From positions 7,817-71,816 of the forward strand of contig JBDHKD010000003.1 in assembly GCA_039586575.1 (NCBI GenBank): 64,000 bases of DNA. Reading direction: 5' to 3'. Positions within the stretch are counted from its first letter, which is position 1. Each line of letters starts with the position of its first letter. The translations under genes and the position numbers were made by a program. The DNA comes from Gemmatimonadota bacterium. GTDB taxonomy: Bacteria > Gemmatimonadota > Gemmatimonadetes > Palauibacterales > KS3-K002. Under the pieces are notes generated by a model. The model was not told where the DNA came from. It saw nothing but the letters and a program-made list of their open reading frames with translations, and did no database searches. Shown piece by piece: positions 23,753 to 27,306 of this stretch.

Positions 23753-24568
23753 TCAGGGCGCCGGTTCCAGCGCGGCCGCCAGACGGATGAAGTCGGCGAC
23801 GGGCAGCGCGTCGGGCCGGGTGGCCGGCTCGATGCCCAGAGATTGAAGGACCGAGCTCACCGCTTCGCCGGAGAGCGAATATTCCGGCGCCTGCCTCAAG
23901 ACCCTCTGCAGCTGCTTCCGCCGGCGCTGGAAGGCGGCGCGCGTAAGCGTGCGCAGCGCTTCCTCCTCATGCGTCGACAGGGGCGGCGGCGACATGGGGA
24001 CGAGCCGCACGCAGGTCGAATCGACGTCGGGGCGCGGTCGGAAAGCGGCTCTCGCGATGTTGAAGAGCCGCTCGACCCGGGCGACGGCCTGGACGCCGAC
24101 GGTCAGCGCGCCATAGTCCTTGGTGCCGGGTTTCGCCAACAGCCGCTCGGCCACTTCCTTCTGCACGGTGAGCACGACGAGCTGCGGGCGTGGCCGCCGA
24201 TCCAGCAGGTGAAAGATGATGGGCGTGGTGATTCCGTAGGGGATGTTGCCGATCACCTTTAGCGGCCGGTCACCGGCGATGGCGGCGACGTCGAGCTCGA
24301 GGGCATCGCCGTGGATGACCTTCACATCTTCCCTGCCCGCGTATTTCTCCTGTAGCTGGGCGGCGAGGGTATCGTCGAGCTCGACCAGGGTCAGGTGGGC
24401 GACGTGGCCGGCGAGGTGCTCGGTCAACGCGCCCTGGCCGGGCCCGATCTCCAGCACGCGGTCGCCAGCCAGCGGACCGAGAGCTCGGACGATCTTGCGC
24501 TGCAGGTTGGGATCGACCAGGAAGTTCTGGCTGAGTGATTTCTTGGCCTTGTGGGGCCGTTCGCTCAC
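23753..24568 (-). CDS. rsmA: 16S rRNA (adenine1518/1519-N6)-dimethyltransferase
   Basis: 271 aa. QNFLVDPNL, VLEIGPGQGALT and GNIPYGITTPI motifs of KsgA. Confidence 0.9.
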   Translation of the reverse strand: MSERPHKAKKSLSQNFLVDPNLQRKIVRALGPLAGDRVLEIGPGQGALTEHLAGHVAHLTLVELDDTLAAQLQEKYAGREDVKVIHGDALELDVAAIAGDRPLKVIGNIPYGITTPIIFHLLDRRPRPQLVVLTVQKEVAERLLAKPGTKDYGALTVGVQAVARVERLFNIARAAFRPRPDVDSTCVRLVPMSPPPLSTHEEEALRTLTRAAFQRRRKQLQRVLRQAPEYSLSGEAVSSVLQSLGIEPATRPDALPVADFIRLAAALEPAP

Positions 24569-26967
24569 GCCGGCTTCTCCAGCCGCAATACGAAGGCGGT
24601 CTGATCGTCGGGCGCATCCCTGCCCTGCCGGCCGCGTGCCTCGAACATCGCATCGATGATCTGAGCGGGTTCCCCGTGACGGTGACTCACCACGGCGTCG
24701 AGCACCGCGCGCTCGGTCGTCCGCAGCGACGGGTTGGTAAGTCCATCGGTGAACAGGCAGAGCAGGTCGCCGGGCTCCCAGGCCACCGATGCCTCGTCGT
24801 AGCCCTCGTACTCGGCGATTCCGAGGGGCGGGCTGGTCGCTTTGAGTCGCTGGGGCGGTTCCTCGTGGTGCAGGCGGAAAGCGTGGGCGTGCCCGGCGTT
24901 GGCGTAGGTCAGCGTCTGGCGCGCAGAATCGATCACACCGTAGAAGACCGTCATGAACATCTCGGTGCTCTCGAGCTTGTGGATCAGAGCCCGGTGGATG
25001 GCGCGCAACAAGTCGCCCGGCGAGGCGGTCTCGCGCGCGTAAATACCCATCACGCTCATGGAGAGCGCCATGATCAGCGAAGCACCGAACCCGTGCGAGG
25101 TCACATCACCCAACATCGCCCCGATCTTGCCGTCGGTCAGCTTGAAGAGCTGGTAGAAGTCGCCACCCACCGGCCGGGCCGGCACGCAACGGGCCGCGGC
25201 GTCGGCGACCTCCGCGAACTCGTTCAGATCGGGCAAGAGCTTCATCTGCAGATCGTGGGCCAGCTCGAGCTCGCCGATCAACCGCTCGCGGCCTAGACCC
25301 TCCTCGAGCAACCTGACGTTCTCGATGGCGCTACCGATCTGGCGCGCCAGCGTCATCAGCAGCCGCGCTTCGCCCATGCCCGACACCAGCGCGCCGGCGC
25401 GGCGGCCGACCAGGTTGAGGACGCCGACCGATCGGCTGTGCCCTTCCGGGCTGGTGTAGCTCACCGGCACGGCGACCCAAGGCTCGGGCCGCGAGCCGAA
25501 GCGCTCCGCCAGCTCGGGCGGCAGCGTATCGAGATCGTCGAGCCTGACCGTGCGGTTCTCCCGGAAGGCGAGTGCGGAAACGGAAACCGGCGACGAGACC
25601 GGTACCCGGTTGACCGGGCGGCGCGATGGGCCTTCGGAGGCGGCGAGCACGAGCTGCTCCGTGTCCGGCTCGTAGACCCAGAGTGAGGCGCGCTCGGCGC
25701 CGGTCACGCGCAGCACGCCCTTGAGGATCTGGCTGGCGGCGTCCTCGAGCTTGGTGACCACACCCAGCGTCTCGGTGATGCTGTGCAGCAGCTCGATCTC
25801 CTCCTGGCGCTCCGAGAGGTCGCGGCGGCTCTCGGCGAGTCGCGTCTCGTACGAGAGCGCCTCGTCGAGCAGGTCGCGCGTGAACTCGGCCCAACGCTGC
25901 GAGCACTCGTCGTCCGCCGGAAGCACCTGTACGGCGTAGCGGATCCCCGGAGTGCGGAGCCAGTGGAGCTGGCCGTCGGGCTCGACGGTCGCCGCACCAT
26001 CGGGTGCTATGTGCTCGAGCGAGCCGTCGAGGCTCTCGGTCCAGAGGTGCACATCGGCGCCGGAGCCCAGGCGCACGCGCTCGACCAACCCGACCAGCGC
26101 CTCCGCATCGCTGCTCACCGGCCGGACCGCTTCGCCGACGACCTGCTCCTCCCAATCGCTCCGCAAGGTCAGTGTGACGGAGTTGCCGCGCTCGCTGAAC
26201 ACCAGCTCGTCAGCCAGCTGCTTGAGCAGGAAGAGGCCGCGGCCGCCGGGCTCCTCGAGCGCCGCACCGCTCGTCGGGTCGGGGACCTGGCTGTAGTCGA
26301 AGCCGGGGCCCTCGTCCGTGATCTGCACCTTGCAGGTCCAGGCGTTCACGCTCGCCCGCAGCCTGACCATTTTCGAGCGGTCACCCTGGTTGCCGTAGAA
26401 GATCGCGTTGGAGAGCGCTTCGCTGAGCGCGATGCGCAGGTTGACCAGCTTGCGCGGCCCGTAGCTACGGTAGTCGCGGCAACAGCCGGCGAGTAGGCGA
26501 ATCACGTGCTCGATGATGGAGACATCGCTGGGCAGCTCGAGATTGATCTCGTTGGACATGAAGCGGTCCAGGTCGCCGGGCCTGGCGCCCGGTGGCCGAC
26601 CGATGCCCTCGAGCTTCCTGTGGAGCTGTTCCGAAGTGACCGGCAACATGAGACAGTCATGGCAGCCGGCCTTGAGCGCATAGGTGACATCGCGGACGTT
26701 CGACTCGTCGGGATCGGCGACGGCCCAGAGGGCGGAGCGTGGGAAGAGCTGGGCCAACGATGTCCACTGCTCGCCGGTGGGCTTGAGTGCGATGTCGGTG
26801 AGAACGAGCGCCGGGCGCGCGTCGGCGTGGATCTCCAGATGGTCGAGCGTGGCGATGACGGAACCCGCGAAACCGATCCCTTCAACCGCCGCCGTCAACG
26901 CCTCGGCCAAGCGCGGCCGCTGCGTCACGATTAGGGCGGTGCCACCTCCCGCTTGCCGCCCGGTCAT
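24565..26967 (-). CDS. multidomain partner-switching protein: receiver-like domain + RsbW-type HATPase anti-sigma/kinase domain + GAF + PP2C (SpoIIE/RsbU-type) phosphatase
   Basis: 800 aa. REC-like VLTDIALKP...ALKAGCHDCLMLPV without the N-terminal DD pair. HATPase N-box ALSEALSNAIFYG, G1 DEGPGF, G2 GGRGLFL. GAF (ASLWVYEPDT...VAVPV...GVLNL). PP2C (GGDFYQ, GDVTSHG, MFMTVFYGVID, FTDGL). Confidence 0.8.
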   Translation of the reverse strand: MTGRQAGGGTALIVTQRPRLAEALTAAVEGIGFAGSVIATLDHLEIHADARPALVLTDIALKPTGEQWTSLAQLFPRSALWAVADPDESNVRDVTYALKAGCHDCLMLPVTSEQLHRKLEGIGRPPGARPGDLDRFMSNEINLELPSDVSIIEHVIRLLAGCCRDYRSYGPRKLVNLRIALSEALSNAIFYGNQGDRSKMVRLRASVNAWTCKVQITDEGPGFDYSQVPDPTSGAALEEPGGRGLFLLKQLADELVFSERGNSVTLTLRSDWEEQVVGEAVRPVSSDAEALVGLVERVRLGSGADVHLWTESLDGSLEHIAPDGAATVEPDGQLHWLRTPGIRYAVQVLPADDECSQRWAEFTRDLLDEALSYETRLAESRRDLSERQEEIELLHSITETLGVVTKLEDAASQILKGVLRVTGAERASLWVYEPDTEQLVLAASEGPSRRPVNRVPVSSPVSVSALAFRENRTVRLDDLDTLPPELAERFGSRPEPWVAVPVSYTSPEGHSRSVGVLNLVGRRAGALVSGMGEARLLMTLARQIGSAIENVRLLEEGLGRERLIGELELAHDLQMKLLPDLNEFAEVADAAARCVPARPVGGDFYQLFKLTDGKIGAMLGDVTSHGFGASLIMALSMSVMGIYARETASPGDLLRAIHRALIHKLESTEMFMTVFYGVIDSARQTLTYANAGHAHAFRLHHEEPPQRLKATSPPLGIAEYEGYDEASVAWEPGDLLCLFTDGLTNPSLRTTERAVLDAVVSHRHGEPAQIIDAMFEARGRQGRDAPDDQTAFVLRLEKPA

Positions 26968-26973
26968 GATGGT

Positions 26974-27306
26974 CTAGAAGTCCTGCAGCGCCACGTCCCG
27001 GGACTCCGCGATGTGGAACAGCGTGTCCAGCTTCGTGAGCTCGAAGAGCGTGCGCAGGTCCTCGTTCAGGTTGGACAGCCGCATCTCACCGCCCTTCTCA
27101 CGGATCTTCTTCGAGAGGCTCACGAGCACGCCCAGGCCCGAGGAGTCGATGTAGGCCGTGTCGCTGAAGTCGATGAGGAACTTGCGAGAGCCGTCGTCCA
27201 GCATTTGCAGGACGGCATCCTTGAGCTCCTGGCGGTTGCCGACGATCAGCTGGCCGGTGACCTCGACTACGGTGACATCGCTTTGTTGTGATACCTCGAA
27301 GTTCAT
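26974..27306 (-). CDS. STAS-domain anti-sigma-factor antagonist
   Basis: 110 aa. Typical SpoIIAA/RsbV length and DFSDTAYIDSSGLGVL phospho-serine loop. Lies 7 bp upstream of the fusion protein. Confidence 0.85.
   Translation of the reverse strand: MNFEVSQQSDVTVVEVTGQLIVGNRQELKDAVLQMLDDGSRKFLIDFSDTAYIDSSGLGVLVSLSKKIREKGGEMRLSNLNEDLRTLFELTKLDTLFHIAESRDVALQDF

Follow-up and report, generated by a model that had tools for sequence, protein, structure and literature searches.

Introduction

The closest described counterparts of the module analysed here join both activities of a partner switch in a single protein. In HsbR/HsbA of Pseudomonas aeruginosa and CrsR/CrsA of Shewanella oneidensis, a receiver, a PP2C phosphatase and an RsbW-type kinase share one chain beside its STAS substrate, a layout reported to be widespread among Proteobacteria (PMC6482189). 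HsbR and CrsR both phosphorylate and dephosphorylate the STAS partner; RpoS, their cognate sigma factor encoded elsewhere in the genome, binds to the kinase domain (PMC6482189). SypE of Vibrio fischeri is likewise a dual serine kinase/phosphatase, acting on the conserved Ser56 of SypA (PMC8256260); SypE bears a receiver, and SypA is a single-domain STAS protein from the same locus (PMC8256260, PMC3610818). In OsaC of Streptomyces coelicolor, the N-terminal kinase domain is the part that binds SigB (PMC10117811), and the protein is counted among the phosphatases that have GAF and PAS sensors (PMC12143880). In Rv1364c of Mycobacterium tuberculosis, the order is PAS-PP2C-kinase-STAS, with the substrate fused to the enzymes (PMC12143880). 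In canonical switches such as RsbV-RsbW-RsbU and SpoIIAA-SpoIIAB-SpoIIE, the kinase and phosphatase are not fused.

Here we analysed a stretch of 64,000 nucleotides from a Gemmatimonadota bacterium (hereafter the window), in which a STAS gene precedes one long gene for a protein with predicted kinase and phosphatase domains. Comparison across the phylum shows that this protein is a lineage-specific fusion within a phylum-wide rsbV-rsbW-rsbU-like operon.

A STAS gene and a fused kinase/phosphatase gene

The module and its downstream neighbour lie on the minus strand and comprise the following features:

26974..27306, minus strand: STAS anti-sigma-factor antagonist of the RsbV/SpoIIAA type, 110 aa (Pfam STAS, NCBIfam ant_ant_sig)
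27142..27144, minus strand: codon of Ser55, the predicted phospho-acceptor, in the motif D54-S55-S56-G-L-G (alignment to SpoIIAA)
24565-26967, minus strand: 800-aa ORF with degenerate receiver, kinase, alpha/beta, GAF and PP2C parts (Pfam, AlphaFold2)
26602..26943, minus strand: degenerate (pseudo-)receiver, residues 9-122 (profile of N-termini against the PDB, AlphaFold2)
26161..26553, minus strand: RsbW/SpoIIAB-type serine kinase/anti-sigma domain (HATPase_c_2), residues 139-269, predicted from Pfam PF13581
25759..26112, minus strand: alpha/beta subdomain (286-349) and 50-residue helix (354-403) without a Pfam family (AlphaFold2)
25321..25749, minus strand: GAF domain, residues 407-549 (Pfam)
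24580..25206, minus strand: SpoIIE/RsbU-type PP2C (PPM) serine phosphatase domain, residues 588-796, predicted from Pfam SpoIIE and Foldseek
23753..24568, minus strand: rsmA/ksgA (16S rRNA dimethyltransferase), directly downstream of the 800-aa gene (orthologue at locus L081 annotated RrnaAD)

Both reading frames lie where an earlier note on this DNA had placed them, and its description of the upstream product as a canonical STAS antagonist holds. The 110-aa protein matches Pfam STAS (PF01740; E=2e-23, 82.5 bits against a cutoff of 22.6) and NCBIfam ant_ant_sig (TIGR00377; 81.2 bits against 53.45), and its closest solved structures are TM1442, RsbV and SpoIIAA. In the alignment, S55 pairs with the first DSSGLG serine of SpoIIAA from B. 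subtilis, Ser58, which is the residue phosphorylated in SpoIIAA. The motif is kept in 76 of 77 STAS orthologues, and the protein is predicted to be phosphorylated by, and to bind, the adjacent RsbW-type kinase domain. Its ATG is preceded, at a distance of 5 nt, by the ribosome-binding site GGAGG. The junction with the 800-aa ORF reads TAG-ACCATC-ATG, a gap of 6 nt instead of the 7 bp first given; in orthologous loci, the gap is 4-8 nt, with L019 (121 nt by start call) as the exception.

From N- to C-terminus, the 800-aa protein consists of a degenerate receiver, HATPase_c_2, an alpha/beta subdomain with a long helix, GAF, a helical linker and SpoIIE/PP2C. The Pfam search proposed in the earlier note recovered HATPase_c_2, GAF_2 and SpoIIE, and the order REC, HATPase, GAF, PP2C stands, except that a module of ~120 residues before the GAF domain, the alpha/beta subdomain and its helix, had been missed. 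HATPase_c_2 (PF13581) covers residues 152-267 (E=1e-22, 80.9 bits against a cutoff of 27.4), with RsbW 6m36 (9e-9) and SpoIIAB (7e-5) as the closest solved structures. As claimed, the N-box (E183, N187), G1 (D218, G220, G222) and G2 (G242, R243, G244) motifs are intact, and all are invariant in 14 orthologues. All NCBIfam RsbW-type scores of the protein stay below the equivalog cutoffs (NF003144, 36 bits against 145; TIGR01925, 34.9 against 135; TIGR01924, 32.9 against 155); judged by these profiles, the kinase domain is an RsbW-type domain, and its identity as an RsbW/SpoIIAB orthologue is ruled out.

The alpha/beta subdomain and helix 354-403 are modelled by AlphaFold2 with pLDDT 69-90 (10-residue block means), and are followed by a GAF domain recognized by three Pfam families (GAF_2, residues 407-549, E=3e-13; GAF_3, E=4e-10; GAF, E=8e-9). 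A 47-residue helix (531-577) connects GAF to PP2C in the model. The SpoIIE family (PF07228) matches residues 612-796 (E=1.5e-38, 133 bits against a cutoff of 25), and Foldseek placed the PP2C domain next to SiaA-PP2C, RssB and the RsbU domain of Rv1364c (3ke6), with target TM-scores of up to 0.82. Its metal ligands (D603, D621, G626, D741, G742, D787, D788) are invariant in the 14 orthologues and also in 53 sequences, split forms included. Degeneracy of either enzyme domain, which the note had raised against its own reading, is not found, the catalytic Asp/Gly motifs being intact and conserved. One polypeptide carries an intact RsbW-type kinase domain together with an intact PP2C domain, and it probably both phosphorylates and dephosphorylates the adjacent STAS protein.

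The N-terminal domain gave no match to Pfam Response_reg (PF00072) at E<=0.1 when the 800-aa protein was searched. A profile built from ten N-termini, however, matches solved response-regulator receiver domains in the PDB (E=1e-10), and in the AlphaFold2 model residues 10-122 adopt a (beta-alpha)5 fold, with pLDDT averaging 70-91 over blocks of 10 residues. The homology to receivers is real despite the silence of Pfam. The note had called this receiver atypical and without the DD pair; the acidic-pair positions are indeed T15 and Q16, no orthologue has a conserved acidic pair, and P86 and L108 occupy the Thr/Ser and Lys positions (the latter Leu or variable across orthologues). Since D58, at the phospho-acceptor position, is the only residue of the catalytic set present, we class the domain as a pseudo-receiver. 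D58 is invariant among orthologues with N-terminal identity as low as 21%, so that a residual phospho-acceptor role may have been kept. Because three of the four catalytic positions are lost, the 'two sensory inputs' ascribed to the protein are uncertain.

The module is a fusion within a conserved operon

A scan counted 262 stretches encoding a relative, and 80 related loci were fetched. All 80 are from Gemmatimonadota, and in every one rsmA follows the module directly. The STAS gene lies directly upstream in 77; the remaining three contigs end short of it. Wherever the contig reaches, coaD is found upstream as well, giving a conserved block of recJ, rsmD, coaD, pta, STAS, kinase/phosphatase and rsmA. 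The module of the window lies in the same setting, with coaD (or pta) on one side, rsmA on the other and all three parts homologous. The 800-aa gene ends in a TGA that shares bases with the GTG start of rsmA (GTGA, direct sequence reading).

Within this block, the kinase and phosphatase occur in several forms. The split form (51 of 80 loci) consists of STAS, a separate RsbW-like kinase gene of ~146 aa and a separate X-GAF-PP2C gene of ~525 aa, where X is the alpha/beta subdomain with its helix; in L040, the latter two are coupled through an ATGA overlap. The fused form with a receiver-like N-terminus, as in the window, accounts for 26 loci from as many GTDB species genomes. Fusions without the receiver are seen in L030 and P0070-72/P0077, and in P0114, found in two samples, a receiver-kinase protein of 276 aa is followed by a separate 514-aa phosphatase. 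The fused homologue P0073 is 36% identical and lies in the same recJ-rsmD-coaD-pta-STAS-X-rsmA block (X here being the fused gene). The catalytic motifs of both enzymes are retained in fused and split forms alike.

Since the kinase and phosphatase are separate genes at this position elsewhere in the phylum, the gene of the window is a local fusion. The alpha/beta subdomain and helix have their homologue at the N-terminus of the separate ~525-aa phosphatases; profile matches of these phosphatases begin at positions 288-300, and the AlphaFold2 model has a disordered linker (273-285) at the fusion junction. Of what lay beyond the reach of the earlier note, this origin within a conserved three-gene operon matters most. 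Compared with the split-operon group, STAS is the most conserved gene of the whole block (median identity 74%), followed by CoaD (63%), RsmA (56%), PP2C (52%), RecJ (50%) and HATPase (44%).

The earlier note had also considered that the architecture might prove common and annotated, which holds in part: ~48 near-full-length orthologues (protein clusters from NCBI, JGI, ENA and Logan) are annotated as 'SpoIIE family protein phosphatase' or RsbU, and the fusion is found in the 26 species genomes.

Comparison with described systems

The combination of domains is conceptually not unusual, having precedents in HsbR/HsbA, CrsR/CrsA and SypE. The note had thought the order REC-HATPase-GAF-PP2C unusual; the order HATPase-GAF-PP2C was verified in the unrelated proteins P0051, P0053 and P0057. 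Rv1364c, the comparison originally offered, is less apt than HsbR/CrsR and SypE: it too fuses an RsbU-type PP2C to an RsbW-type kinase, and 3ke6 is among the top Foldseek matches, but in the window STAS has a gene of its own, and the kinase comes before the phosphatase in the chain. The module resembles HsbR/CrsR in joining both predicted activities in one polypeptide with the STAS gene adjacent. It differs in order (REC-PP2C-kinase in HsbR/CrsR), in its GAF domain, which HsbR/CrsR lack, and in its receiver, which is canonical and phosphorylated in HsbR/CrsR (in HsbR via HptB). Membership of the HsbR/CrsR family is therefore rejected on domain order and receiver degeneracy, the likeness being functional and the sequence kinship confined to the domain level; NCBIfam RssB_Pseudo matches only the PP2C part, with 48.6 bits against a cutoff of 700.

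SypE, whose domain order is kinase-REC-PP2C with a central receiver, shares the dual enzyme and same-locus STAS partner with the module, and no sigma output is known for SypE/SypA. It lacks a GAF domain and belongs to a polysaccharide locus, whereas the module lies in a housekeeping block. OsaC-like proteins (HATPase_c_2, PAS/GAF, SpoIIE) share the kinase-sensor-PP2C order but not the receiver-like N-terminus, and their similarity is at the domain level only (26-36% identity over 21-36% of the 800-aa query). The complete OsaC architecture, ascribed to Fernandez-Martinez et al. 2009, reportedly consists of an N-terminal RsbW-like kinase, sensors including GAF, and a C-terminal PP2C. The canonical switches share the three activities and the phospho-serine motif with the module, and most Gemmatimonadota carry these activities as three genes at this locus. 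The window differs from them in the kinase-phosphatase fusion, in the lack of a sigB- or sigF-like gene in the operon, and in a phosphatase with a GAF sensor in place of the RsbT-binding N-domain. The module is an ordinary bacterial signalling switch in which genes have been fused locally, and dual activity of a single chain beside a STAS protein has already been characterised in HsbR/CrsR and SypE.

Proposed cycle and alternative readings

We consider it probable that the module works as a two-gene variant of the Gemmatimonadota rsbV-rsbW-rsbU-type partner-switching operon, with the cycle proposed as follows. The RsbW-type HATPase domain (139-269) would phosphorylate STAS Ser55 using ATP, and the C-terminal PP2C of the same chain would remove the phosphate. 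Gating of the phosphatase would fall to the GAF domain and the alpha/beta subdomain before it, acting along the long helical linkers by the coiled-coil linker/dimerisation mechanism described for RsbU, RsbZ and OsaC; sensor domains, GAF among them, control PPM phosphatases by coiled-coil linkers (PMC12143880). With normal Mg2+ binding or phosphate acceptance presumably impossible, the receiver-like domain would more likely act on the adjacent kinase domain, by docking, dimerisation or autoinhibition. At a pTM of 0.43, the AlphaFold2 model does not fix the domains relative to one another, and an intramolecular role of the receiver is accordingly no more than a possibility. Unphosphorylated STAS would bind the kinase domain and free its bound partner. 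That partner is most likely a sigma factor from another locus, by comparison with the pairs CrsR/HsbR-RpoS and OsaC-SigB; the enzymatic activities, the way regulation runs and the nature of the output partner are all inferred.

That no sigma gene is nearby had been noted before and agrees with our searches: Pfam found no sigma-70 domain in 30 window ORFs of 79-431 aa (ten ORFs of >500 aa lay outside the scan), phmmer with RpoE gave no match in the 64-kb window, and the block conserved across the 80 loci contains no sigma gene. Because neither window nor block yielded one, the anti-sigma role of the kinase domain is put forward purely by analogy. The same phosphorylation cycle could instead have the STAS protein itself as output, its phosphorylation state governing the binding of non-sigma targets, as for SypA of Vibrio fischeri, or HsbA with FlgM and the diguanylate cyclase HsbD. 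This reading, which we hold to be possible but rather unlikely, draws on the lack of sigma domains in the 30 scanned ORFs, on the lack of a sigma gene in the block and on two precedents, since the target of SypA is non-sigma (PMC8256260) and HsbA binds FlgM and HsbD (PMC6482189). The identity values (74% for STAS, 44% for the kinase) fit it at least as well as they fit sigma sequestration, as the top conservation of STAS in the block suggests constraint from more partners than just the kinase. High conservation is, however, common in small proteins with several interaction surfaces, whatever their role; linkage between module and sigma gene is unnecessary, RpoS being unlinked to hsbR or crsR; and the kinase domain retains the overall fold of RsbW/SpoIIAB, a sigma-binding one.

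A working receiver, in which phosphorylation of D58 by a histidine kinase or Hpt protein from another locus would toggle the protein between kinase and phosphatase modes as in HsbR, CrsR and SypE, seems improbable to us. The invariance of D58, the receiver fold and homology, and the switch of HsbR from kinase to phosphatase upon receiver phosphorylation (PMC6482189) are in its favour. Yet the Mg2+-binding acidic pair is missing throughout the orthologues, Pro and Leu or variable residues replace Thr/Ser and Lys, Response_reg misses the domain, most of the phylum has the same module without any receiver, and no histidine kinase is found among the 30 scanned ORFs. Finally, the fused ORF could be an assembly or frameshift artefact, or a decaying gene with a dead kinase half. 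The frame is broken between GAF and PP2C in L027, and a G+C content of 67% favours spurious long ORFs, such as the 648-aa ORF that overlaps the real rsbW in L053. Against this, a frame of 795-800 aa recurs in the 26 independent species genomes and ~48 protein clusters, the GC3 of the 800-aa ORF (0.88) is like that of neighbouring genes, the motifs of both enzymes are all invariant, and homologues of only 35-37% identity retain the architecture. The artefact or decay reading is effectively refuted.

Upstream region of the STAS gene

The sequence 5' of the STAS gene separates it from pta:

27307..27477, minus strand: intergenic region of 171 nt, relatively AT-rich, between pta and the STAS gene (direct sequence reading)

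This is the probable promoter region of the STAS gene. A scan of 27307..27477 for the sigma-70 consensus gave no match. The region contains a tandem repeat, TTGCTCTA TTGCTCTA TTG, at 27353-27371.

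Architecture and catalytic competence of the module

The earlier note had described a STAS gene adjoined by a gene for an 800-aa multidomain protein, and Pfam searches together with the ORF coordinates confirmed both. The ORF listing places them as follows:

26974-27306, minus strand: STAS ORF, 110 aa
24565-26967, minus strand: fused ORF, 800 aa

Only 6 nt separate the STAS stop from the following start (TAG ACCATC ATG), and the ATG of the first gene, STAS, is preceded at a distance of 5 nt by the ribosome-binding site GGAGG. GC3 of both ORFs (0.88-0.90) resembles that of the surrounding genes. 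All domains listed in the note were recovered, while a module between kinase and GAF (residues 286-349 and 354-403) and a helix at residues 531-577 were missing from its list.

Domains and structural elements of the two proteins
110-aa protein, residues 3-104: STAS (Pfam, E=2e-23)
800-aa protein, residues 121-137 and 273-285: disordered linkers (AlphaFold2)
800-aa protein, residues 152-267: HATPase_c_2 (Pfam, E=1e-22)
800-aa protein, residues 286-349: alpha/beta subdomain in the kinase-GAF interval (AlphaFold2)
800-aa protein, residues 354-403: 50-residue helix in the kinase-GAF interval (AlphaFold2)
800-aa protein, residues 407-549: GAF_2 (Pfam, E=3e-13)
800-aa protein, residues 531-577: 47-residue helix connecting GAF and PP2C (AlphaFold2)
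800-aa protein, residues 612-796: SpoIIE (Pfam, E=1.5e-38)

NCBIfam recognised RsbW-, SpoIIAB- and SpoIIE-like domains at scores far under the equivalog cutoffs. The AlphaFold2 model of the 800-aa protein has a mean pLDDT of 80.6; its pTM of 0.43 means that the relative placement of the domains is not fixed by the model. When the complete model was searched with Foldseek, most matches were to PP2C and gave no information on the overall architecture.

Across 14 orthologues, the kinase motifs are invariant in the N-box (E183, N187), the G1 box (D218, G220, G222) and the G2 box (G242, R243, G244). The same applies to the PP2C ligands D603, D621, G626, D741, G742, D787 and D788, which stay unchanged even when distant forms are added, in an alignment of 53 sequences. 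A strict regular expression for the G2 box matched only 43 of 79 sequences, a count that was left out of the results. The STAS protein carries the motif D54-S55-S56-G-L-G, with S55 aligned to Ser58 of SpoIIAA.

Pfam returned no receiver match in the 800-aa protein, and NCBIfam gave only MtrA at E=0.049 for this region. Its identity was settled by a profile of ten N-termini, which matched solved response-regulator receivers in the PDB at E=1e-10, and by the AlphaFold2 model, in which residues 10-122 form a clean (beta-alpha)5 unit. In the receiver alignment, the acidic pair is replaced by T15/Q16, the Thr/Ser position by P86 and the Lys position by L108. The invariant D58, at the phospho-Asp position, is the sole catalytic receiver position kept. 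Judged by these residues, the N-terminal domain is a pseudo-receiver.

By homology, the kinase domain would phosphorylate Ser55 of the STAS protein and the PP2C domain would remove this phosphate. Gating of the phosphatase would fall to GAF together with the N-terminal subdomain, via helical linkers, a mode proposed to apply generally where PAS, receiver, GAF or HAMP sensors control PPM phosphatases (PMC12143880). The pseudo-receiver probably acts on the adjoining kinase domain in a phosphorylation-independent manner.

A lineage-specific fusion within a phylum-wide operon

A word-indexed search yielded ~48 orthologues of nearly full length (795-804 aa, 55-100% identity), annotated as 'SpoIIE family protein phosphatase' or 'RsbU'; all those with an organism name are Gemmatimonadota MAGs. 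Scanning a single genome for each GTDB species gave 262 stretches that encode a relative, and from these we fetched the best 80 loci. All 80 fetched loci belong to Gemmatimonadota and carry rsmA directly downstream. The STAS gene lies directly upstream in 77 of the 80, with the contigs of L027, L028 and L046 stopping short of its position. On contigs that are long enough, coaD follows further upstream, often with pta, and ahead of it lie rsmD and recJ. At this position, the module occurs in several states.

States of the locus among fetched loci (L handles) and homologous protein clusters (P handles)
Split, 51 loci: STAS, a separate ~146-aa RsbW-like gene and a separate ~525-aa gene for subdomain and helix, GAF and PP2C
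Receiver+kinase, P0114 (two independent samples): 276-aa receiver+kinase protein, then a separate 514-aa phosphatase
Fused without receiver, L030 and clusters P0070-72 and P0077: HATPase, subdomain and helix, GAF, PP2C
Fully fused, 26 loci: 794-801-aa protein with a receiver-like N-terminus

Split loci are titled Gemmatimonadales, Gemmatimonadaceae, Longimicrobiales or merely Gemmatimonadota, and in one of them (L040) an ATGA overlap couples the RsbW-like and phosphatase genes. The cultured Gemmatimonas aurantiaca has the split form. Candidatus Kutchimonas denitrificans, of the order Palauibacterales, belongs to the fully fused group, and the fused lineage is also represented by complete chromosomes (CP070815.1, CP070812.1, CP070823.1 and CP070722.1); fully fused L019 measures 822 aa with an uncertain TTG start. 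Distant fused homologues with an N-terminal domain (P0073-P0076, 35-37% identity) were found in a library clustered at 50% identity. P0073 lies within the same block (recJ, rsmD, coaD, pta, STAS, fused gene, rsmA), the genes of which overlap or abut.

Matches of the ~525-aa phosphatases to the profile start at query positions 288-300, which identifies the middle subdomain as the native N-terminus of the phosphatase; the fusion junction is the disordered linker 273-285. From these match starts and the several locus states, we conclude that the window gene is a lineage-specific fusion within a phylum-wide rsbV-rsbW-rsbU-type operon, with a pseudo-receiver added before the kinase. Explanations of the fused ORF as an assembly artefact or a pseudogene were rejected. 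Also discarded were 648-aa ORFs (L053 and others) as fused genes, which the ORF listing revealed to be out-of-frame extensions overlapping the real 146-aa rsbW gene. The fused-type locus L027 (JBDHKT010000553.1) shows a frame break that separates GAF from PP2C: its ORF stops at 1419 and the match to PP2C starts in another frame at 1403, reflecting either a sequencing error, a recent pseudogene or a fission.

Relation to known partner-switching systems

Closest in function are HsbR/HsbA and CrsR/CrsA, in which a REC-PP2C-kinase protein adjoins the STAS gene, as well as SypE/SypA. OsaC-like proteins are closest in chain order. We verified the order HATPase, then (PAS), GAF, SpoIIE in clusters P0051, P0053 and P0057; Streptomyces matches of the same search were ordered GAF, SpoIIE, HATPase. 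Because domain order and receiver chemistry differ and similarity is confined to the domain level, we place the window protein outside the HsbR/CrsR, SypE and OsaC-like families. Rv1364c, offered in the earlier note for comparison, is a more distant analogue than HsbR/CrsR and SypE, since its STAS domain is itself fused whereas STAS is a separate gene in the window (PMC12143880).

The reading as a partner-switching module was supported, and the claim of an unusual combination was not: opposing kinase and phosphatase for an adjacent STAS protein in one polypeptide are already known, as is the order kinase, GAF, PP2C. Fused kinase/phosphatase STAS regulators have been characterised, and no new mechanism is revealed. 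Three features are new: the precise domain arrangement headed by a pseudo-receiver, its derivation by fusion from a conserved three-gene operon of which intermediate states survive, and the phylum-wide conservation of the module at a single syntenic position with no sigma factor linked to it.

Partner switching is one of the main signalling devices of bacteria. Our literature search found nothing on partner switching in Gemmatimonadota and no paper pairing this phylum with 'anti-sigma factor antagonist'. Across the phylum, a single syntenic position presents a natural series, from three genes through receiver+kinase with a separate phosphatase and kinase fused to phosphatase to the fusion of all three parts. 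Such a series could reveal the route by which opposing activities come together in a single chain, and the contribution of the pseudo-receiver.

Sigma factor or STAS protein as the possible output

Two outputs can be considered by analogy. The kinase domain may sequester a sigma factor encoded elsewhere, as CrsR and HsbR do with RpoS (PMC6482189) and OsaC with SigB (PMC10117811). Alternatively, the STAS protein itself may act on other targets, with precedents in SypA (PMC8256260) and HsbA (PMC6482189). Pfam detected no sigma domain in 30 window ORFs of 79-431 aa. Neither phmmer with an RpoE query nor regular expressions for sigma regions 2 and 4 found a sigma factor in the window. We retain STAS as a possible output because these searches were empty and no other gene in the block is as conserved as STAS, with a median identity to the split-operon group of 74%, compared with 63% for CoaD, 56% for RsmA, 52% for PP2C, 50% for RecJ, 44% for HATPase and 39% for GAF.

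Compared with L029-L080, STAS (26974-27306) exceeds CoaD, RsmA, RecJ and Pta in conservation. This is surprising in a small regulator and may point to several interaction surfaces under constraint. The locus draws attention to an exceptionally well conserved STAS protein from a phylum that has received little study. Since STAS outdoes neighbouring housekeeping enzymes and the module forms a tight unit with rsmA/ksgA, one could picture a phylum-wide core regulator with a non-sigma output, in which STAS controls a basic cellular process, for instance the maturation of ribosomes or the capacity for translation, and the pseudo-receiver is a newly recruited, phosphorylation-independent input of the Palauibacterales-like lineage only; we regard this combined reading as improbable.

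Transcription and the upstream region

rsmA/ksgA begins at a GTG that overlaps the TGA stop codon of the 800-aa gene, and this overlap suggests that the module is probably co-expressed with the ribosome-maturation enzyme. A consensus scan found no sigma-70-like promoter and one terminator-like site, which lies within coding sequence; this number is below chance expectation. Many loci of the split group share a strongly conserved sigma-70-like element, TTGCC(C)-N17/18-TA(C/T)(C/T)AT(T), ~75-83 nt upstream of the STAS start (typical form ...TTGCCCCGACATTTGTTCC..TTTATCATT). It was seen in L031, L038, L040, L042, L051, L053, L054, L059, L061, L072, L077 and others, and is not evident in the window. 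This putative element implies a long 5' leader of roughly at least 70 nt, and its conservation upstream of STAS suggests a housekeeping promoter rather than an autoregulated alternative-sigma promoter.

The 171-nt intergenic region upstream of STAS in the window (27307-27477) is an unusually AT-rich spacer and contains a repeat:

27353-27371, minus strand: tandem direct repeat TTGCTCTA TTGCTCTA TTG

Similar (T/G)CTATTG repeats occupy the same place in L004, L005, L012 and L024. They are absent from most other fused-form loci, where pta ends ~60-70 nt before STAS. The repeat could be a putative regulator binding site or a small insertion.

Other genes in the window

Further genes and ORFs of the window are:

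13499-14134, 13951-14811, 20185-20934 and 23123-23737, plus strand: ORFs whose codon bias is gene-like
28991-29656, minus strand: rsmD-like gene
29521-31257, minus strand: recJ
31301-32038, minus strand: 245-aa coiled-coil protein, CT398-like coiled-coil hairpin domain (E=9e-7)
46849-48045, 48224-49516 and 52930-54039, minus strand: three ORFs (369-430 aa) whose GC3 of 0.85-0.91 is gene-like

The four plus-strand ORFs have no Pfam family; the first two overlap by ~180 nt, and therefore one start or ORF is probably wrong. The three minus-strand ORFs (46849-54039), with no Pfam match at E<=1e-5, share a same-strand run with a DUF6305 protein at 49618-50277. CT398 and HP0958 are RpoN-binding proteins; the CT398-like gene is the close upstream neighbour of recJ, and its synteny is conserved in 57 of the 80 related loci. 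As called by longest ORF, the rsmD-like gene shares 136 nt with recJ, compared with an overlap of only 4 nt in the related locus L081, so the rsmD-like gene probably starts at a codon downstream of 29656.
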